Positions 7,819 through 53,634 of a stretch of DNA of 64,000 nucleotides are shown piece after piece. Origin of the DNA: an uncultured bacterium (GTDB lineage Bacteria; Patescibacteriota; Minisyncoccia; Phycocordibacterales; GWA1-40-21). Position 1 is the stretch's first letter. Each line of letters begins with the position of its first letter. Below the pieces are notes generated by a model. The model searched no databases and was not told the DNA's origin. It saw nothing but the letters and a program-made list of their open reading frames with translations. The translations under genes and the position numbers were made by a program. The stretch spans positions 64,144 through 128,143 of the forward strand of contig CAILDB010000014.1 in assembly GCA_903832855.1 (NCBI GenBank). Reading direction: 5' to 3'.

Positions 7819-9186
7819 ATGTACACTCTCAACGACATCTACCACCTCATAGCAAACAACACCCTAGCAACCGAAGGATTAAATCATGAACTCTCCACCA
7901 CTTCTTCTCCCTCTGTACCCACCTCCCACTCTATATCTGAAATCTACGCTGCTCTAGCTAATCTCCCCACCCAAGACAAACTCAAACCAGATTCCACTTA
8001 TTTAGGTGTCTCCCAGTCAGGTTCTGCTCCCACTCCAACCACCTTTACTCCCGCATCTCTTACACCCTCAGGCTCACCTTCAATCACAGGCTATACTCTA
8101 AACGACATCTGGAACCTTGCTACTACAAGTGGCACCAGACTCACATCCCCAAGTTCTCACTCTCTTTCCACTACCTCAGCACCTACAGGTACAATGCACA
8201 CACTCAAAGAAATTTACCTTGCTTTAGTCGCATATGGAGATGCTCATAAATCTGATGTTCTAAATACCACAACTTACCTTGGAACATTAGGAACCTATGT
8301 CCCAACTCACACAGTTACTTTTGATGCTAATACGGGTACGGGGTCCATGTCTGCTCAAACAATTGCGGAAGGGGCCTCAGCTAATTTAACCTCCAACACC
8401 TTTACTAAAACAGGTAACAACTTTTCCGGTTGGGCCACAACTGCCGGCGGAGTTGTTGCTTATGCTGATGCCGCCAGCTATACCATGGGCTCATCGAATG
8501 TGACGCTGTATGCCAAGTGGGCTATAAATTACACAGTTACCTTTGATGCCAATACCGGCAGTGGTTCTATGTCTCCACAAACAATTGCGGAAGGGGCTTC
8601 AGCTAATCTGACGGCCAACACCTTTACCAAAACAGGTAACACCTTTGCGGGCTGGGCCACAACTGCCGGCGGAGATGTCGCCTATGCTGATACGGCCAGT
8701 TATACCATGGGCTCATCGAATGTGACGCTGTATGCCAAGTGGACAGCCGTAGTAGATGCTTGTGGCGTGAGTGGTGATGCAACGGATCTGGATTGTTGGT
8801 CTATGGGATCTCCGATCTCTATGGCTTGGGGGCCCAACCCATCATACCCTGGTGTTTCAACTGATATCGGTCTTTCAAACGGTAAAGCCAATACGGATGT
8901 TTTAATGGCAGCAGAATCTGCATATTCCGAGTCATATCCTGCCGCTCACTATTGCGCTACTTTAGACGATGGTACTCATCCTGTTGGTACGTGGTATCTG
9001 CCATCTTATGCTGAACTATGGGCTGGTTATGGCGCTGTCCCGGGATTTATGGGCGACGCTTATTGGTCTTCTACTGAGTGGTCACAAATGTCAGACACAT
9101 GCGCCTGGGCGTTGTACCCGGGCCTCAACGATATTTACGGCGCCAGTAAGGACACACCGCCGTACAATGTCCGTTGTCTCCGCTAG
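7819..9186 (+). CDS. Surface protein with tandem Listeria-Bacteroides (InlB B-type) repeats and C-terminal DUF1566 (Lcl-like) domain; probable true start at 7697 via CT-tract frameshift
   Basis: Two ~70-aa repeats TVTFDANTG.GSM..QTIAEGASANL...YAKW; C-terminus WYLPSYAELW...YWSST...NVRCLR; three YTLNDIY-type N-terminal repeats; GC-richer than neighbours. Confidence 0.7.
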   Translation: MYTLNDIYHLIANNTLATEGLNHELSTTSSPSVPTSHSISEIYAALANLPTQDKLKPDSTYLGVSQSGSAPTPTTFTPASLTPSGSPSITGYTLNDIWNLATTSGTRLTSPSSHSLSTTSAPTGTMHTLKEIYLALVAYGDAHKSDVLNTTTYLGTLGTYVPTHTVTFDANTGTGSMSAQTIAEGASANLTSNTFTKTGNNFSGWATTAGGVVAYADAASYTMGSSNVTLYAKWAINYTVTFDANTGSGSMSPQTIAEGASANLTANTFTKTGNTFAGWATTAGGDVAYADTASYTMGSSNVTLYAKWTAVVDACGVSGDATDLDCWSMGSPISMAWGPNPSYPGVSTDIGLSNGKANTDVLMAAESAYSESYPAAHYCATLDDGTHPVGTWYLPSYAELWAGYGAVPGFMGDAYWSSTEWSQMSDTCAWALYPGLNDIYGASKDTPPYNVRCLR

Positions 9187-9267
9187 CCCCAGTAACCAGA
9201 CAAGGACTGTCCTTGTAGATAGGGCAATAATGGGGTCAGCCACCATTTCATTAAATTATAAAAAACC

Positions 9268-22575: not shown

Positions 22576-23646
22576 CTATCCCTCAACCAACTCCTTCATT
22601 AGCTCGGCGACGGAAATGATTTTTTTGATACGATAAGCATTACTGCCGACCGTAAACATTGGAGGTTCACTTGGGGCCATACCTACGGCCGCCCTGAGTG
22701 CATCACAGATACAGAAGTAATCCTTGTTTAAGGGATTATTGGGAGCAGCTTTGCAGACCGTGTATCTGCCTTCGCTGTCTTTTCCCAAAACATAACCCAT
22801 CCTACATTTCGGATGACGCGTCCCTTGACACATTTCCAAATATGCAGGAGAGCCCCTCAGTATCCGAAAAGGGAAACCACAAGGTGAACTTGGCACCACT
22901 ATGATGTCCTCTTCTGTTGAACTAACAATTTGCTGTTTGAATTCCTCCGTTGCTGAACTTTCAAAAGTGGCTAGAAATCTCGTCGCCATTTGGACACCAC
23001 TTGCCCCCATTTCTAGGAACCTTATGATGTCTTCATGAGTATATATTCCACCAGCCACAATGACTGGGATATTTCCATTTTCCGAAGCCACCTTCAGAAC
23101 TTCCGGCAAGATGTTTTCCAGAGCAAACTCCGGTTTGTAGACATCTTCCAGATGAAAACCCAAATGTCCTCCAGCCATCGGACCTTCTAGAACCACTGCG
23201 TCTGGCCGATGTCGCCAGCGTCGCAGAATTATGTTTAAGGTTCGAGCCGAAGAGGCAATGAGTATCTGAGCTGTATCTCCAGAGTCGGCGATTAGTTTGG
23301 GAACACCCGCTCCCAAAAAGACCGCAGTAACCTTGGCATCTATCGCAGCTCGGATTGTTTCGTCGTAACTCTCGTCGAGAATTCGCATTATGTTGATGCC
23401 GACGAGATAGCCGTCTGCCATCGCGGTTTCAATTTCTTCTCTGACCGCTTCGTAGGTAGTGTACGGCTTTTTGTTTCTCAAAGCGTAAAGGTCTTTCAAC
23501 CCTGCGCTTGAAAGAACGCCGAGACCACCTGTGCGGAAGACCGCTCTCGTCAGCGGGGTTCCAGACACCCCGGCACCCATTCCACCTTGTATGATGCAAT
23601 AGGGCAGTTCAAAATTCTTGATTCTCAATCCAGGAATCGTGTTCAT
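22576..23646 (-). CDS. FMN-dependent nitronate monooxygenase / FabK-like (NPD family) with Cys-rich C-terminal extension
   Basis: IIQGGMGAGVS and VLEGPMAGGHLGF motifs; GC-richer than genome. Confidence 0.65.
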   Translation of the reverse strand: MNTIPGLRIKNFELPYCIIQGGMGAGVSGTPLTRAVFRTGGLGVLSSAGLKDLYALRNKKPYTTYEAVREEIETAMADGYLVGINIMRILDESYDETIRAAIDAKVTAVFLGAGVPKLIADSGDTAQILIASSARTLNIILRRWRHRPDAVVLEGPMAGGHLGFHLEDVYKPEFALENILPEVLKVASENGNIPVIVAGGIYTHEDIIRFLEMGASGVQMATRFLATFESSATEEFKQQIVSSTEEDIIVVPSSPCGFPFRILRGSPAYLEMCQGTRHPKCRMGYVLGKDSEGRYTVCKAAPNNPLNKDYFCICDALRAAVGMAPSEPPMFTVGSNAYRIKKIISVAELMKELVEG

Positions 23647-23827
23647 TTGATATTTCCTCCTATAAGTTAAAGAACGCCTTTTCTAAATAAATGATAGCAC
23701 AACTTGGAATTTTTTCCACTTAGTTATTGAAGACAAGAGAGTCGAATTTTTTGCGGCAAAAAATTCGGCTTCAGTTTTGCGTCCCAAACTATTAAATGAT
23801 ATTATGTTTGCATAATTAATTTTTAAA

Positions 23828-27855: not shown

Positions 27856-28065
27856 ATGAGCGAAAGACAGAGGATACACAAGTGGTACATTGAGCCACTT
27901 GATAAGGAGAGGGCTAATGAAACTCTCAGCAAGAACCAGTGGTTCTTGAGTGATGATGATAATAGATTTGATGAAATCGTATGCTCCGATGGCGAGCGAC
28001 ACAATCTGTGGGGATGTCCGGATTATGCCTTTGTTTCCATTTTGGAAAAAAGAAAATCTGAATGA
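27856..28065 (+). CDS. Small hypothetical protein
   Basis: Strong SD aaaggagaaagag upstream; preferred over the overlapping minus-strand ORF. Confidence 0.35.
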   Translation: MSERQRIHKWYIEPLDKERANETLSKNQWFLSDDDNRFDEIVCSDGERHNLWGCPDYAFVSILEKRKSE

Positions 28066-28195
28066 AACACAGTTTTCAAAATCTGGCACCAGATAGGCAA
28101 CGGCCAAATCTGCCCGTGGGAGTTCCCCAAGGGGAAGACTGTGGCGATATCGGTAGGTGTCCCTTCCGATTCGCATTAATGACTCCAGCAGGCCT

Positions 28196-28218
28196 CGGCC
28201 CCGCGTACTCCGCGGGGC
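28196..28218 (+). terminator. GC hairpin terminator (exact reverse complement of the 53578 hairpin)
   Basis: ggccccgcgtactccgcggggcc + tttttc. Confidence 0.55.
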
Positions 28219-28360
28219 CTTTTTCTTGGATAAAATGGGATCAGCCACCATTTTCCTGTTGCAATTCAATGTAACTCAGGTTTGTACTAGTTGTTGCCTA
28301 AATGGATATATGCTATAGTATCTCTAAGTATTCCTAAAAAGCGGAATACTTGAAGATAAT

Positions 28361-43400: not shown

Positions 43401-45164
43401 ATGATAGAGAAAGTACTGGAAAATTTAATAAAAAAAGCATTGGAGTCGCTTGGAATTGAGGGAGCGGAAACTTTGAATGTGAGTTTGGAACATCCAGAGG
43501 TGATGGCTCATGGAGATTATTCTACAAATGTTGCGATGGTGCTGGCGAAAAAGATGGGGGAAAATCCGAGGGAGCTGGCGGGGAAGATTAAAGAGGAGAT
43601 GGATTCCGTTCTTCAACGGAATGACAGAGGGGAAAATATGATAGAGAAAATTGAAGTTGCAGGGCCGGGGTTTATTAATTTTTATTTAGCGAAAAAAGTT
43701 TTTGAAAATGGGGTGGGGGAGATTTTGAAGGATGGTAATCAATATGGTCGTAATAATATTTTAGATGGTCAGAGAACAATTATTGACTACACTGACCCAA
43801 ATCCGTTTAAGGATTTTCATATTGGGCACTTAATGAGTAATGCAATTGGCGAGTCACTTTCAAGAATAATGGAGGCGAACGGAGCTATCGTAAAAAGGGC
43901 CAATTATCAAGGCGATGTGGGTATTCATGTTGCTAAAGCAATCTGGGGTGCATTTAAAATGCTTAACGAGTCAGAGTGCAAGAAAGCATTTTTTGGGGGT
44001 TGGTTTGGTCTTGGAAAAAATTCAAAAATTTGGGGACAGGCGTATACTTTAGGTGCGATAGCTTTTGAAACAGATGAAAATGCAAAAAAGGAAATAACTA
44101 ATCTGAATAAGAAGATTTACGATCGTTCGGATGGAAAAATAAATAAACTTTATGATATTGGGAGAAAAACATCCCTAGAATATTTTGAAAAGATTTATAA
44201 AATTCTTGGCACAAAATTTGACTACTATTTTTTTGAAAGCGAAGTGGATGATTTAGGGAAGGCGATTGTGCTTGAGGCTATGGCGAAGGGTTATTTTGAA
44301 AAAAGCGATGGGGCGGTAATTTTCCGAGGGGAGAAATATGATCCGCTTTTGCATACTCGGGTTTTTATTAGTTCCCAGGGATTACCAACATATGAGGCAA
44401 AAGAAATTGGTTTAACAAAAGAAAAATATCGCCGATTTGCTTTTGATAAAACAATTGCTGTTACAGGAAACGAAATTAACGATTATTACAGAGTAGTCAA
44501 AAAAGCGATGGAATTTACTATACCTGATTTGGCTTCTAAAGTGGTGCATATTGGTCATGGAATGTTGCGACTACCTTCTGGTAAAATGTCATCTCGAACA
44601 GGACAGGTAATTACGGGTGAGTCATTGCTTACCGAAATACAAAAAAATATTTTGGAAAAAATGAGAGATCGAATGATGTCAAAAAAAGAAAAAACGCAAA
44701 TAGCAGAAATCGTGGCGGTGGGAGCATTGAAATATTCCATTTTGAAACAAGCTGCCGGTGGGGATATTATTTTTGATTTTGACAAGTCAATTTCTTTTGA
44801 GGGGGATTCTGGACCATATTTGCAATATTCATATGTTCGTGCAAAATCTGTTTTGGAAAAAGCAAAAGATGAAAATGTAAAAGCAAAAATAAACAAAGGT
44901 GATTCTGACGGAAGTGTTTTGGAAAAAATGCTTTTGAGATTTACGGAAGTGGTGGAAAGGGCGGGAAGGGAATACTCGCCACATTATCTTGCGATTTATC
45001 TGACTGAACTTGCATCTGCATTCAGCACTTTTTATGCAGAAGGAAAAATTGTGGACAAAACCGACGCAAAATCTCCTTACAAAATTGCTCTTACGCAAGC
45101 TTTTTCTGTCGTGATGAAAAGCGGATTGAATCTTTTGGGGATAAAGGTGCCCGAAAAAATGTAG
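43401..45164 (+). CDS. argS: Arginyl-tRNA synthetase (with 9-aa in-frame repeat insertion)
   Basis: FHIGHLMSNAIGESL (HIGH) and GKMSSRTG (KMSK-like); AGPGFINFYL; insertion MDSVLQRND from the family-1 unit. Confidence 0.9.
   Translation: MIEKVLENLIKKALESLGIEGAETLNVSLEHPEVMAHGDYSTNVAMVLAKKMGENPRELAGKIKEEMDSVLQRNDRGENMIEKIEVAGPGFINFYLAKKVFENGVGEILKDGNQYGRNNILDGQRTIIDYTDPNPFKDFHIGHLMSNAIGESLSRIMEANGAIVKRANYQGDVGIHVAKAIWGAFKMLNESECKKAFFGGWFGLGKNSKIWGQAYTLGAIAFETDENAKKEITNLNKKIYDRSDGKINKLYDIGRKTSLEYFEKIYKILGTKFDYYFFESEVDDLGKAIVLEAMAKGYFEKSDGAVIFRGEKYDPLLHTRVFISSQGLPTYEAKEIGLTKEKYRRFAFDKTIAVTGNEINDYYRVVKKAMEFTIPDLASKVVHIGHGMLRLPSGKMSSRTGQVITGESLLTEIQKNILEKMRDRMMSKKEKTQIAEIVAVGALKYSILKQAAGGDIIFDFDKSISFEGDSGPYLQYSYVRAKSVLEKAKDENVKAKINKGDSDGSVLEKMLLRFTEVVERAGREYSPHYLAIYLTELASAFSTFYAEGKIVDKTDAKSPYKIALTQAFSVVMKSGLNLLGIKVPEKM
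43601..43627 (-). repeat. Family-1 palindromic unit in-frame in argS
   Basis: ggattccgttcttcaacggaatgacag. Confidence 0.8.
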
Positions 45165-45246
45165 GAACATTTTTTCGGGCCATGTTTCCCCTTATCTCCA
45201 GAAGACGGCTTAAAACCTACCCATTTCACCTGTGGATAACTTTTGC

Positions 45247-45274
45247 TTGACTTTTAATTCAAAGGTGGTATACT
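45247..45274 (+). promoter_or_regulatory. Near-consensus sigma70 promoter (TTGACT-N16-TATACT)
   Basis: ttgacttttaattcaaaggtggtatact; predicted TSS ~45281. Confidence 0.6.
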
Positions 45275-45280
45275 ACTAGG

Positions 45281-45612
45281 GTATGTTGGACATTCATTGT
45301 GAGTGTTCATCAAGAAAGGGTAAAAGTATGTGTTATCGCAATAGGGCTGTTAGTTCCGCAGGGTTTAAATCTCACACGCCACGGGTGCCCGCCTTTCTTC
45401 GTGAAGGGGTGCGCACCTCGCCGGCAAGGACGGGAAATACTGTGCAATGTGCCCAGGAAAATAAGAAGCGGAATGAGGTGCGCGTGTGGCGTGCCGACAG
45501 CGTGGTAGTGGGCTGAGTTCCACTTTCGTTAACTAAGGTTTTCTGCGTCTAGGAAACGCATCAGAACCGCCCCGAGTTTCGCTTTGCCGTTTTAGGCAAG
45601 CGAAACTCGGGG
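45281..45612 (+). ncRNA. Candidate GC-rich structured RNA / ileS leader (identity unresolved)
   Basis: ~58% GC core in a ~35% GC genome; strong promoter; long stem tgtgag...ctcaca enclosing AUCA; ends at a 19-bp terminator; overlapping ORFs are Arg-rich artefacts. Confidence 0.45.
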
Positions 45613-45623
45613 TTTTATTTTTG
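45570..45623 (+). terminator. Strong intrinsic terminator immediately upstream of ileS
   Basis: ccccgagtttcgctttgcc-gttttag-gcaagcgaaactcgggg + ttttatttttg. Confidence 0.8.
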
Positions 45624-45668
45624 TTCAAAAACTGATAGAATAGGATTTCAAGTTTTAAATAAGCAAAA

Positions 45669-48600
45669 ATGGACAAAAAAGCCCAAAAAGAAGCAAAAGA
45701 AGAAAAACCTGCGACTGTGGGTAAGGTTTTAAAAAGCAAAATTGCCGAAAGGGAAGAAGAGATTTTGAAATTCTGGCAGGACAATAAGATTTTTGAAAAA
45801 ACCTTGAAAAAAGATTCGCCAAAAGGTGAGTTTAAGTTTTACGATGGTCCTCCATTTGCGACAGGACTTCCGCACTTCGGGCACATTCTTGCTGGGACAA
45901 TGAAAGATGTTTTTGGTAAATATGAAACGATGCTCGGAAAGCATGTGGAAAGAAAATGGGGTTGGGATTGTCACGGTTTGCCGGTGGAAAATATTGTAGA
46001 AAAAGAACTAGATTTAAAATCCAGAAAAGATATTGAAATTTACGGAGTTGAGAAATTTAATGAGATGGCGAGAAAAAGTGTCGTGAAATATGTGGACGAC
46101 TGGAAGAAAATTGTGCCGAGAACGGGGCGTTTTGTGGATATGGAAGATGATTACAAGACAATGTCGCCAACTTATAGCGAAACTATTTGGTGGATTTTCA
46201 AACGGCTCAACGACAAGGGCTTGGTATCAGAGGGCTTTAAATCAATGCATCTTTGTCCGAGATGTGAGACGACGCTTTCAAATTTTGAAGTCAATCAAGG
46301 CTACAAAGACATCACCGATATTTCTGTGACAGTTAAATTTGAACTAGTTGAAGAACCGGGGACTTTTATACTTGCTTGGACGACGACTCCTTGGACTTTG
46401 CCTGGAAATGTTGCACTTGCCGTGGGTAGCGATATTGAATATGTAAAAGGAAAAATAGAAGGGCAAGAAGGAAATTATATTTTTGCAAAAGACAGGTCAG
46501 TCGCAGTTTTAAAAGACAAGAAATTTACTTTGGTTGAGGAGATACTCGGTAAAAAGTTGTTGGGCAAATCCTACAAACCTCTTTTTGATTACTACAATAA
46601 TGATGAATTAAAAAATAGAGAAAATGGATTCAAAGTTTATCCTGCGGATTTTGTAACTATTGAGGATGGTACTGGAATTGTGCATATTGCTCCTGCTTTT
46701 GGTGAAGACGATATGATCCTTGGTAAAAAGGAAAAATTGCCCTTCATTCAGCATGTTGGAACAGATGGAAGATTCAAAAAAGAAGTGGTGGATTTCGCGG
46801 GTGAACAAGTGAAGCCAAAAGAAGATCATCAGAAAGCTGATATTGAAGTGATTAAATATTTGGCAGGGAAAGGAACTCTTTTTGATAAGGAAAAAATGAT
46901 TCACTCATATCCACATTGTTGGAGATGTGATACGCCACTTTTAAATTACGCATCTTCTTCTTGGTTTGTAGAAGTTCCAAAAATCAAAGACGAACTCATT
47001 GCAGAAAATAAAAAAATAAATTGGGTGCCAAAAGAGGTGGGTGAGGGAAGGTTTGGAGAATGGCTTGAAAATACCAGAGATTGGGCGGTTTCTCGTTCCA
47101 GATTTTGGGGTGCACCGCTTCCTGTTTGGAGATGTGCGGAATGTAAAAAAACGCATTTTATTGGTGGTGTGGAAGAGCTCAAACAAAAAATCGGCAAGAA
47201 AAATAATTTTTTTGTAGTTCGACATGGTGAGGCGGAAAGCAATACCTTAGGAATTCTTAGCACGAAGGTTGAGACCAAGCATCATCTTACCGACCTCGGT
47301 AGGGAACAGGCAAAAGAAGTTTCGGAAAAGATTAAAAAAGATAAAATAGATGTCATTATCTCGTCGCCATTTTTGCGGACAAAAGAAACTGCGGAAATAA
47401 TTGCAAAAGAAATCGGCTATTCGGAAGACAAAATTATTTACGATAGTCGTCTCCACGAAGTTTCTGTCGGGGTCTTGGATGGTAAATCAGATGCAGAATA
47501 TCAAGCATATTTTGGCACAAGAGAAGAAAAGTTTTGGAAAATTCCTGAAGGTGGAGAAAGTCACACGGATGTCAAAAACAGAATGACGGAATTTTTGTAT
47601 GATATTAATTCTAAATATGAAGGCAAAAATATTTTGATAGTCTCACACAACACTCCGCTTTGGCTAATGTATGCAGGTATGAAAGGGATGACGCCAAAGC
47701 AAGCTATTGCGATTAGGGAACAAGGGGCACCTTTTATTCATAATTCCGAACTGATGAATTTTGATTTTATTCCAATTCCACACAACAAAAATTACGAGCT
47801 TGATTTGCATCGCCCATATATAGACGAAGTCACTTTTGCTTGCGGTTGCGGAGGTGAGGCAAAAAGAGTTCCGGAAGTTTTTGATTGCTGGTTTGAGTCT
47901 GGCGCAATGCCTTACGGTCAAAATCATTATCCTTTTGAAAATTTGGATAAATTTAATCCGGAAAAAGATATTGGTTTTCCTGCAGACTTTATTGCCGAAG
48001 GTGTGGATCAGACGAGAGGTTGGTTTTATTCCATGCTTGTTCTTTCTGTCGCACTTTTTGGCAGAAGTTCATTTAAAAATGTTGTTGTAAACGGAATTAT
48101 TCTTGCGGACAACGGTCAAAAAATGTCCAAGAGATTGCAAAATTATACAGACCCTTCTGAGGAAATGGACAGATTTGGCGCAGATGCTATGAGATATTAT
48201 TTGCTTTCTTCACCTGCCGTTCACGCAGAAGATTTTAGTTTTTCCGACAAAGGTGTGGATGAAGTTGTAAAAAAAGTAATAATGCGTGTGGATAATATTT
48301 ATTCTTTCTGTGAAATGTACGGCGGAGATTTGAAAGGTAGAAAAGTTGAAAAAGTTTTGTCGGAAAATGTTTTGGATAAATGGATTGTTGCTCGTCTGAA
48401 AGAGCTAGCAGGCGAGATGACAGTTTCTATGAATAAATATGAATTGGATAGGGCGACGAGACCTGTCGCGGATTTTGTGGATGATTTTTCTACATGGTAT
48501 CTTCGAAGATCTAGAGATAGATTTAAGAGTGAAAATATTCAGGACAAAGATATGGCTATCGCCACTACGCTTTATGCTCTAAAAGAATTTTCAAAATTAA

Positions 48601-49223
48601 TTGCACCATTTATGCCATTTCTTGCGGAGAGTTTGTACAAAAGAGCGGGAGGCACTTTACAGCTTGAAAGTGTTCATTTGGAAAATTGGCCGGAAGATAT
48701 TGCGGGCGAACTTTCTCCGGAAGAAAAAGAACTCATCGCCAGTATGACTGAGACGAGGAAAATTGTTTCTTTTGGACTTGAAGCGAGAGCAAAACTTGGA
48801 ATTAAAGTTAGACAGCCACTTTTGTCAGCAAAAATAAAAAGCCAAATTATTTTGCAAAAAAATGAGCTTTCGGCACTTGTAAAAGATGAGTTAAATGTAA
48901 AAGATGTTCTTTTTGCGGAATTGCTTTCCGGAGAAGTAGAGCTAGATGCGACGATGACGGATGAGCTTAAAGAAGAGGGAATCATGAGAGATATTGTCAG
49001 GGCCTTGCAGGAGCTTAGAAAAACAAAAGGATTAAATCCTGGGGATATTGCTTCTCTTGAAGTTCACACAGATGAAAAAGGTAAAAAATTTCTGCAGAAA
49101 TTTGAGAAAGAAATTTCAAAATTGACCGGAGTAAAAGAAATATCTTTTGTCTCTGAAGCAAAAGGCGAGGGAAGTGACAAACTATCTTCAGAAATTGCCG
49201 ACTTCTCTTTTAAAATTTTGTAA
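45669..49223 (+). CDS. ileS: Isoleucyl-tRNA synthetase with inserted histidine-phosphatase (PGAM-like) domain
   Basis: PHFGHILAG (HIGH) and KMSKRLQN; CP1 editing domain; zinc CxxC pairs; extra ~190 aa (FVVRHGEAESN...SSPFLRTKETAEII...SHNTPL) between the zinc knuckle and the DLHRPYID segment. Confidence 0.9.
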   Translation: MDKKAQKEAKEEKPATVGKVLKSKIAEREEEILKFWQDNKIFEKTLKKDSPKGEFKFYDGPPFATGLPHFGHILAGTMKDVFGKYETMLGKHVERKWGWDCHGLPVENIVEKELDLKSRKDIEIYGVEKFNEMARKSVVKYVDDWKKIVPRTGRFVDMEDDYKTMSPTYSETIWWIFKRLNDKGLVSEGFKSMHLCPRCETTLSNFEVNQGYKDITDISVTVKFELVEEPGTFILAWTTTPWTLPGNVALAVGSDIEYVKGKIEGQEGNYIFAKDRSVAVLKDKKFTLVEEILGKKLLGKSYKPLFDYYNNDELKNRENGFKVYPADFVTIEDGTGIVHIAPAFGEDDMILGKKEKLPFIQHVGTDGRFKKEVVDFAGEQVKPKEDHQKADIEVIKYLAGKGTLFDKEKMIHSYPHCWRCDTPLLNYASSSWFVEVPKIKDELIAENKKINWVPKEVGEGRFGEWLENTRDWAVSRSRFWGAPLPVWRCAECKKTHFIGGVEELKQKIGKKNNFFVVRHGEAESNTLGILSTKVETKHHLTDLGREQAKEVSEKIKKDKIDVIISSPFLRTKETAEIIAKEIGYSEDKIIYDSRLHEVSVGVLDGKSDAEYQAYFGTREEKFWKIPEGGESHTDVKNRMTEFLYDINSKYEGKNILIVSHNTPLWLMYAGMKGMTPKQAIAIREQGAPFIHNSELMNFDFIPIPHNKNYELDLHRPYIDEVTFACGCGGEAKRVPEVFDCWFESGAMPYGQNHYPFENLDKFNPEKDIGFPADFIAEGVDQTRGWFYSMLVLSVALFGRSSFKNVVVNGIILADNGQKMSKRLQNYTDPSEEMDRFGADAMRYYLLSSPAVHAEDFSFSDKGVDEVVKKVIMRVDNIYSFCEMYGGDLKGRKVEKVLSENVLDKWIVARLKELAGEMTVSMNKYELDRATRPVADFVDDFSTWYLRRSRDRFKSENIQDKDMAIATTLYALKEFSKLIAPFMPFLAESLYKRAGGTLQLESVHLENWPEDIAGELSPEEKELIASMTETRKIVSFGLEARAKLGIKVRQPLLSAKIKSQIILQKNELSALVKDELNVKDVLFAELLSGEVELDATMTDELKEEGIMRDIVRALQELRKTKGLNPGDIASLEVHTDEKGKKFLQKFEKEISKLTGVKEISFVSEAKGEGSDKLSSEIADFSFKIL
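47202..47768 (+). other. Histidine phosphatase superfamily (branch 1, PGAM/cobC-like) domain inserted in-frame in ileS
   Basis: RHGE catalytic motif, SSPFLRTKETA and SHNTPL motifs. Confidence 0.65.
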
Positions 49224-53232: not shown

Positions 53233-53562
53233 ATGAGAAAACAAAAGGTCTTGTTTGCTTCTGCCATCATGATGGTCGGCGTTGCTCGAGCTTCAGTGGA
53301 GGGGGCCCTCAAAAAAATGACAGGAGCACCTGTTTCTAAAGAGAAAGTGGTCGGCGGAGAAGAAAAGGAAACAGTTTTTCTCAAGCTGGCACGGTCTTCA
53401 AGGCTTGGAATTGCTGAGATTGATGAAGTTACTGCTGAACTGTACCGTAATTCTCAGCGTCAGCGTTTTGGGCCGGCACCGAGGGTTTTGATCGGATTTA
53501 CGGGACGTAATGGTCCTAGTCGAAATCGTGGCCATATGGTTGCTTATGGGAAGGGTGGCTGA
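53233..53562 (+). CDS. Small secreted hypothetical protein (GC-richer)
   Basis: SD aaaggaa upstream; signal-peptide-like N-terminus; terminator 53578-53600 downstream. Confidence 0.35.
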   Translation: MRKQKVLFASAIMMVGVARASVEGALKKMTGAPVSKEKVVGGEEKETVFLKLARSSRLGIAEIDEVTAELYRNSQRQRFGPAPRVLIGFTGRNGPSRNRGHMVAYGKGG

Positions 53563-53577
53563 AGTGAAGTGTAGTTT

Positions 53578-53600
53578 GGCCCCGCGGAGTACGCGGGGCC
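53578..53600 (+). terminator. GC hairpin terminator (reverse complement of the 28196 hairpin)
   Basis: ggccccgcggagtacgcggggcc + ttttctttt. Confidence 0.6.
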
Positions 53601-53634
53601 TTTTCTTTTCTCCCTTTTTTAGTATGATACCCAT

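Follow-up and report, generated by a model that had tools for sequence, protein, structure and literature searches.

In the 64,000 nucleotides of DNA analysed here (the window, meaning this whole stretch), which come from a genome of the Paceibacteria or Parcubacteria in the Candidate Phyla Radiation (CPR), the genes argS and ileS are separated by a GC-rich stretch that is a real, autonomous small gene with a promoter and a terminator of its own, separate from ileS. We read its transcript (45281-45623) as the messenger RNA for an orphan basic peptide of 62 residues, presumably translated, and give this reading a probability of roughly 0.55. The unit is not a T-box, RNase P RNA, transfer-messenger RNA (tmRNA), signal recognition particle (SRP) RNA or 6S RNA, and apart from its ends it has no detectable structure. 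Small genes of relatives have a promoter, 5' untranslated region (5'UTR), ribosome-binding site and ATG homologous to those of the unit, and the place that it occupies between argS and ileS is a hypervariable and dispensable slot in this clade of Paceibacteria.

An initial annotation of this DNA had described a near-consensus promoter (TTGACT-N16-TATACT), a core of about 58% GC and a terminator with a 19-bp stem and a U-tract about 45 nt ahead of ileS, which together would make an independently promoted and terminated unit. This anatomy was confirmed in all its parts, and the unit consists of the following features.

45247-45274, plus strand: sigma-70-type promoter with -35 element TTGACT, 16-nt spacer and TG-extended -10 element TATACT, matching the consensus at 10 of 12 positions
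45281-45623, plus strand: predicted transcript of about 340 nt, its start set 6-8 nt past the -10 element and its end at the U-tract
45312-45320, plus strand: ribosome-binding-like box AAGAAAGGG, 7-8 nt before the ATG at 45328
45328-45516, plus strand: open reading frame (ORF) of 62 codons plus stop MCYRNRAVSSAGFKSHTPRVPAFLREGVRTSPARTGNTVQCAQENKKRNEVRVWRADSVVVG (stop at 45514-45516), lying inside a 77-aa ORF that begins at 45283 and followed 54 nt later by the terminator
45570-45623, plus strand: intrinsic terminator with arms 45570-45588 and 45595-45612 (a stem of about 18-19 bp), a 6-nt loop (45589-45594) and a U-tract (45613-45623) with the tail UUUUAUUUUUG

A scan for promoters is by itself not significant (4 sites against 3.4 expected per 2 kb), and the site at 45247-45274 was accepted because its -35 element, its spacer and the first transcribed bases are conserved in relatives. 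The GC content per 100 nt is 0.58-0.60 across 45350-45499, and no other 150-nt stretch of the window attains the 0.613 reached here (mean 0.38, standard deviation 0.065). The terminator hairpin, which a simple terminator scan overlooked, has a folding energy of -33.9 kcal/mol and a local z of -5.0, and it ends about 45 nt upstream of the ileS start codon.

The unit is also set apart from ileS by what lies past this terminator. The block 45613-45668 (AAAAACTGATAGAATAGGATTTCAAG...) aligns with the regions upstream of ileS in the related loci L081, L082, L175 and L133, with scores of 22.5-30.5 against shuffle maxima of 17-20.5, and it is present whatever gene precedes ileS. Since this conserved block carries a TGaTAGAAT box downstream of the terminator, ileS would have a promoter of its own. 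Boxes of the form TGnTAnAAT precede many genes of the window.

45633-45641, plus strand: extended -10 promoter of ileS, TGaTAGAAT, within the conserved block 45613-45668, assigned to ileS rather than to the unit
43401-45164: argS, with the domains Arg_tRNA_synt_N, tRNA-synt_1d and DALR_1
45669-49223: ileS, with its ATG at 45669

As an observation on the window in general, a Shine-Dalgarno-like box is found in only 9 of 50 long ORFs, and many of these ORFs have a TGnTAnAAT extended -10 element 7-25 nt before the ATG, which suggests that the messenger RNAs of this genome segment may be mostly leaderless or short-leadered.

The homology of the start signals was established by comparison with about 170 related Paceibacteria loci, 102 of which are syntenic, with argS just upstream of ileS. 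The nearest relatives by the flanking genes are metagenome-assembled genomes of uncultured Paceibacteria, Vogelbacteria and Taylorbacteria, with identities of at most 80% for the N-terminal part of IleS and at most 77% for ArgS; the collections searched contain no genome of the same genus, as judged by an ArgS identity above 85%. In an alignment of seven lineages (the window, L170, L175, L177, L178, L081 and L085) the element TTGACTTTT, the spacer AAAGGTGGTATA, the block GGAnTTCATTG, a purine box and the ATG are collinear; for the -35 element and spacer (TTGACTTTT..AAAGGTGGTATA) the collinearity is with L170, L175, L177, L178 and L081. Taken pairwise, window positions 45235-45321, that is the promoter and the first transcribed bases, score 24 against L170, where shuffles score 11.9 +/- 1.6 with a maximum of 17.5. 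Positions 45293-45344 score 21.5 against the 5'UTR, the GGAAAGGG box and the ATG-TGT of a 93-aa ORF in L085, and there the shuffles score 10.8 +/- 1.4 and none of 500 reaches this value. A box AAGAAAGG or GGAAAGG stands 7-11 nt ahead of the ATG in L177, L178, L085 and L081. Moreover, the AAGAAAGG-N8-ATG of the unit resembles the box of the Shine-Dalgarno-bearing genes of the window itself, for example CAAAGAAAGGTAAACAT followed by ATG. As the 5'UTR, the box and the start are aligned, the ATG at 45328 is a homologous start codon. In the relatives these collinear signals drive ORFs of 93-193 aa.

What follows the start signals differs widely from one relative to another. By the gap between argS and ileS, the 102 syntenic loci comprise 15 with at most 130 nt, 7 with 131-300 nt, 34 with 301-600 nt and 46 with more, so that the insert is dispensable and variable. 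With the exception of the promoter regions, the spacers can be aligned neither with each other nor with that of the window. In most relatives the slot is taken by a small ORF on the plus strand, preceded by a purine-rich ribosome-binding site and followed, 12-50 nt past the stop, by a terminator; a few have minus-strand ORFs. The same anatomy of ribosome-binding site, ORF (42-173 aa) and terminator 12-50 nt after the stop was found in 14 positional analogues. The bodies encountered so far comprise a protein family of 172-193 aa, orphans of 42-109 aa and GC-rich units without coding signature.

The protein family includes the products of L081 and L083 (172 aa), P0127 (173 aa), L170 and L177 (193 aa), with L133 (118 aa) and L087, which equals L174 (105 aa), as distant members that phmmer connects with L081. 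Its members are located as follows.

L081 2268-2786, L175 1310-1831, L177 2301-2882, L133 2412-2768 and L174 4344-4661: basic proteins of the slot family, 105-193 aa

Several members contain motifs with Cys. Between L081 and L083 the codon differences are 29 synonymous and 7 non-synonymous, which shows that the family is truly protein-coding. A profile search of 5.8 billion proteins returned four clusters only, and the family is therefore clade-specific; searches of Pfam and PHROGs with the slot proteins gave nothing convincing, and the AlphaFold model of a 173-aa member was uninformative (predicted local distance difference test, pLDDT, 36). The unit of the window resembles this family (P0124-P0127, L170, L177) in its position, its -35 element and spacer, its first transcribed bases, its purine-rich ribosome-binding site, its ATG and its terminator. 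However, its ORF has no detectable protein similarity to the family, is much shorter and has a GC content at third codon positions (GC3) of 0.60, against 0.39-0.45.

Three further peculiarities were observed in the spacers of relatives. In L076 (3679-4001) a sequence of about 95 nt (GTATTTTTGGAGTCCGTCTGAAAATTC...) is repeated directly in tandem, twice in full and a third time in its first part. In L003 and L089 a long near-perfect inverted repeat (CTACCCCGTAGTAGATTTTGCCAT ... ATGGCAAAATTCACTACGGGGTG) lies past the slot terminator and overlaps the ileS promoter region. Loci L006, L007, L021 and L137 have in the slot a small minus-strand ORF with a strong AGGAGG box, and their ileS promoter region is of a different conserved form (TTACGGTAAATTAGAG).

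From these elements we propose that the strong promoter at 45247-45274 would initiate a transcript of about 340 nt, whose first 50 nt or so, together with the AAGAAAGG ribosome-binding site and the ATG at 45328, would descend from an ancestral small-protein gene, as their homology indicates. The inherited signals would now drive a lineage-specific, GC-rich ORF of 62 codons and so yield a basic, probably disordered orphan peptide. To judge from the anatomy, the strong terminator at 45570-45623 would then stop transcription, and the conservation of the extended -10 promoter at 45633-45641 suggests that ileS would be transcribed separately from there. The unit would thus neither sense tRNA(Ile) nor control ileS by attenuation.

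Several observations on the ORF itself are in keeping with translation. Public assemblies of the same species call it as a gene, either of 62 aa (from ATG 45328) or of 77 aa (from the in-frame ATG 45283), and it has the generic anatomy of a small gene, in which a correctly spaced ribosome-binding site and a start codon are followed by a frame that stays open and closes ahead of the terminator. From the homologous ATG, 62 codons stay open in about 9.6% of dinucleotide shuffles, and the coding score of the frame is -3.9 bits against -28.5 and -50.5 in the other two frames. The initial annotation had considered the ORFs of this region to be Arg-rich artefacts. Composition does explain the Arg-richness and the charge, but the dismissal goes too far: small ORFs of relatives, among them one family shown to be coding, have a ribosome-binding site and an ATG homologous to those of the unit.

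Nevertheless, a considerable number of results weigh against a coding body. The coding score of the ORF is reached by 21% of stop-free shuffles. Its GC content at the first, second and third codon positions is 0.56, 0.57 and 0.60, where argS and ileS have 0.47, 0.33 and 0.32, its synonymous usage ranks at the 0.85th percentile among windows taken from real genes, and a second frame of 69 aa is open as well. The net charge of +8 is close to that of a random translation of the same composition (shuffle mean 7.6); basic charge was dropped as coding evidence, being a by-product of composition. AlphaFold predicts no secondary structure for the peptide (pLDDT 56). No protein homologue was found outside the species, only clonal same-species copies with the 77-aa and the 62-aa ORF. 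These copies differ by one single-nucleotide polymorphism (45324), with the same sequence recurring in at least 9 contigs of several samples, and so give no measure of selection on the ORF. Samples that hold the species include ENA ERZ27313547 and ERZ18660456. The family profile built from the relatives gives at most 1.0 bits against the six-frame translation of the unit, and the 62-aa ORF scores like its own shuffles (p 0.34). The sequence is unique from 45345 onward; searches with the DNA of the unit by nhmmer and blastn in 160 related loci, in phage and plasmid collections and in the rest of the window recovered only the promoter with the 5'UTR and the ileS promoter block.

Three apparent likenesses of the ORF or of its analogues were rejected. 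An exhaustive phmmer search gave E values of 5.7e-12 and 5.4e-11 to FAINT-repeat proteins of 1781 and 2207 aa. We consider this relationship to be due to chance: the best single alignments reach about 25-32 bits, which we estimate to be the chance expectation for a library of that size, and the high total comes from adding up as many as a dozen near-identical repeats. The Pfam FAINT model does not match the ORF. A peptide family with the pattern W.SW.D ... RRFGGR across L002, L004b and L082 had weak Smith-Waterman scores only and no support from BLAST or phmmer, and the ORF does not resemble the L004a peptide significantly (p = 0.008, uncorrected for the 12 tests made).

Compared with orphan small-ORF genes of bacteria in general, the unit is alike in having a short ORF with its own promoter, ribosome-binding site and terminator, in being confined to a single species, in its atypical composition and in its variable, dispensable locus. 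It is unlike them in that its signals have homologues in front of unrelated ORFs of sister lineages, and the codon statistics do not support the translation that we presume.

A possible alternative, although one that we rather doubt, is that the unit is a lineage-specific non-coding small RNA (sRNA), in which the ribosome-binding site and the ATG would be left over from an ancestral protein gene. The composition accords with this: the unit is the GC peak of the window, its GC is equal at all codon positions, its codon usage is indistinguishable from random, and there is neither a protein homologue nor a predicted protein fold. The strong promoter and the terminator would suit an sRNA equally well. 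The folding of the transcript does not point in the same direction. With the terminator the unit has a z of -4.1 against shuffles, but without it the z is -0.53 and 54 of 200 shuffles are equally stable, so that the high GC gives no extra structure; the antisense strand behaves in the same way with and without the terminator. In a scan of 60-nt segments only the terminator and two hairpins, one at the 5' end and one in the centre, stand out, the remainder having z values from about -0.9 to +1.7. The hairpins of the unit, besides the terminator, are the following.

45284-45312, plus strand: 5'-terminal hairpin with a 10-bp core (45287-45296 / 45300-45309), holding 'tgtgag'; local z -2.1
45378-45425, plus strand: imperfect GC-rich hairpin inside the ORF, holding GUGAAGGGGUGCG; -24.7 kcal/mol, z -1.4 to -2.0
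45537-45568, plus strand: small hairpin between the stop codon and the terminator; local z about 0

The 5' hairpin itself is not conserved in relatives, although its sequence block GGAnTTCATTG is, and the central hairpin is marginal, with 4.6% of shuffles equally stable. The annotation had instead drawn a long helix between tgtgag at 45298 and a ctcaca near 45383. In the minimum-energy fold tgtgag belongs to the 5' hairpin, and the ctcaca is at 45371-45376. The structured sRNA that had been proposed is supported neither by the z of the body nor by conservation, the body having no DNA match in about 170 related loci.

Known RNA families were searched with Rfam version 15, using gathering scores for the whole 64 kb and E<=10 for a 571-nt segment and for the 295-nt body. 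At the gathering scores there was no match anywhere in the 64 kb. At E<=10 the 571 nt gave only chance matches, all on the terminator hairpin, and the body alone gave none, so that the scan for T-box, RNase P, tmRNA, SRP and 6S RNA came out empty. ARAGORN found neither a tRNA nor a tmRNA in the 64 kb, and tmRNA, SRP RNA and 6S RNA were excluded as identities of the unit on these results (no tmRNA by ARAGORN, no Rfam covariance-model match). Against an sRNA there is also the retention of the ribosome-binding box, of its spacing and of the ATG, with an ORF that is open at p of about 0.1, and there is no seed region or target that we could name. With the genes of trans-acting bacterial sRNAs the unit has in common a free-standing promoter, a Rho-independent terminator, an intergenic position and a lineage-specific sequence; it differs from them in its length (about 340 nt is long), in its conserved ribosome-binding site and ATG with an ORF, in the lack of an evident seed or target and in having structure only at its end hairpins.

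The strongest point for an RNA comes from two relatives that have homologous GC-rich units in the slot.

L002 1115-1400 and L176 2516-2822: homologous GC-rich units

The two are 76% identical in the putative ORF, 84% in the 3' flank, which is the best-conserved part, and 60% in the 5' flank, and the start of ileS is 78% identical between them. Their substitutions fall 7/9/11 on the three codon positions and make 7 synonymous and 13 non-synonymous codon differences; each of the units has two open frames. Since they are conserved without codon-position bias, at least some GC-rich units of the slot may act as RNA, which speaks against our coding interpretation of the unit in the window. RNAalifold proposes a fold for the pair, on two sequences only, and a covariance model of their core found no further member in the 178 loci fetched and no match to the window. 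The L002 and L176 units are therefore candidates for a small RNA or for an unusual small ORF.

A broader and still more tentative idea is that the spacer between argS and ileS serves as an expression-ready slot, in which the promoter, the 5'UTR, the ribosome-binding site and the start codon are kept while the bodies are repeatedly swapped for unrelated sequence. Seen in this way, which we offer as a speculation, the GC-rich body of the window would have been recently captured or would have newly arisen, and would have been caught in the course of becoming a gene, for a protein or for an RNA. To our knowledge, the swap of a body behind homologous expression signals has rarely been documented. 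The simplest idea for the high GC, which none of the readings accounts for, would be a recent capture of foreign or novel sequence behind the conserved cassette. Further GC-rich islands of the window are found at 8531-9250, 23081-23650, 28051-28280 and 53441-53620, with a 150-nt GC of 0.56-0.59.

It is unlikely, in our judgement, that the unit is a mere remnant, still transcribed but functionless, in which the body of the ancestral small-protein gene is decaying, or was deleted or replaced by foreign or novel GC-rich DNA. The relatives closest by ArgS identity, L175 (77%) and L170 (73%), carry a gene of about 173 aa behind the same promoter, whereas the window keeps the signals only, with a shorter and unrelated body; the dispensability of the slot and the composition, atypical in all frames, would also agree with a relic. 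However, decay in an AT-rich genome should lower the GC content, and the unit is the GC maximum of the window. Moreover, no damage is seen in the promoter, the ribosome-binding site, the ATG, the open frame or the terminator, which is unusually strong. The identity of the sequence in at least 9 contigs from several samples also speaks against decay, although clonality fits it equally.

The two remaining explanations, an RNase P RNA and a leader of ileS, share at most a few per cent between them. RNase P RNAs of CPR bacteria often score below the thresholds of Rfam (Lui et al. 2021, PMC8172020), and because they can escape in this way the unit was also threaded manually. It shares with such diverged RNAs its size of about 300 nt, its GC-richness in an AT-rich genome, its place below the gathering thresholds and, within a stretch that is separately promoted and terminated, two strings reminiscent of conserved RNase P regions, GUGAAGGGGUGCG and GCAAGG..AAAUA. 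The annotation had called the likeness to the P10.1/P11 junction superficial and had not been able to find P4, and the threading agrees with it. P4, in which conserved region CR-I (GAGGAAAGUCC..) pairs with CR-V (ACAGAA..GGCUUA), could not be formed: AAGAAAGGGU (45312-45321) finds no 3' strand to pair with, the CR-V-like AUCAGAACCGCCCC extends into the terminator stem, and the 5' AAAGGGU cannot pair with the 3' AACCGCCCC because the 3' bases are locked in that stem. No partners for P1 or P5 were found in the unit, and the models RF00010 and RF00011 gave no match at E<=10, either with 295 nt or with 571 nt. Unlike the diverged CPR forms, the unit thus lacks P4, P5, P1, a covariance-model score, extra folding stability beyond that of shuffles and conservation in relatives. 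As the promoter and the 5'UTR are common to protein genes, the body is absent from all relatives and an essential RNA would not occupy a dispensable slot, even a highly reduced RNase P RNA of the diverged CPR type is very improbable. In L004 (3269-4001) the spacer is filled by two tandem small units, each running from promoter to terminator. A P4-like pairing of AAGAAGGUCUGG with CCGGACUUAGUCCA in the second of them was judged to be chance, and it is absent from the apparent relative L002.

Equally improbable is an attenuator leader, whether a divergent T-box or of another type, that would sense tRNA(Ile) and gate read-through into ileS; a divergent tRNA(Ile)-sensing leader was one of the two options of the annotation. 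The unit does lie directly upstream of ileS, is a few hundred nt long and ends in an intrinsic terminator close to the ileS start, and an AUCA adjoins a hairpin. In contrast to T-box leaders (RF00230), it has no T-box sequence, no Stem I signature and no antiterminator, and a promoter of ileS follows its terminator. The absence of a canonical T-box sequence, already remarked in the annotation, holds even when mismatches are allowed: with up to 3 of them, GGGTGGTACCGCG (core AAUUAGGGUGGUACCGCG) matches five times in the window and never within 45247-45668. A Stem I with specifier loop or tRNA-elbow platform was sought with the RF00230 covariance model, which was silent at the gathering score and at E<=10. 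The best duplexes of the body with the two terminator arms (-15.7 and -14.5 kcal/mol) are weaker than the shuffle means (-18.2 and -16.3 kcal/mol), and no alternative pairing rivals the terminator. Moreover, the comparison of the regions upstream of ileS shows that relatives hold unrelated genes, or nothing, in the same place, 15 of the 102 syntenic loci being without an insert, which is against a leader role. The 62-codon ORF has no Ile codon and is therefore not an Ile leader peptide either.

A separate observation concerns the IleS protein (1184 aa), whose class I catalytic domain is split into two halves by an inserted histidine phosphatase domain (His_Phos_1, PF00300, E 9.6e-37) at residues 515-679. 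IleS of L171, L173 and L174 is on record with this insertion too, and a literature search did not turn up any account of it.

Taken by itself, the unit of the window is an ordinary uncharacterised orphan. Its analysis removes an annotation trap, as no T-box or other tRNA-sensing control of ileS should be inferred at the spacer between argS and ileS, and the unit is not the RNase P RNA that is frequently missing from CPR annotations either. What is documented here is a small hypervariable CPR locus in which conserved expression signals precede unrelated small genes, some of the units being without a coding signature. If it is true that the slot exchanges its bodies while promoter and ribosome-binding site stay fixed, it would lend itself to the study of how orphan genes arise in minimal genomes, and would show gene birth or cassette exchange happening naturally in the reduced genome of a symbiont.

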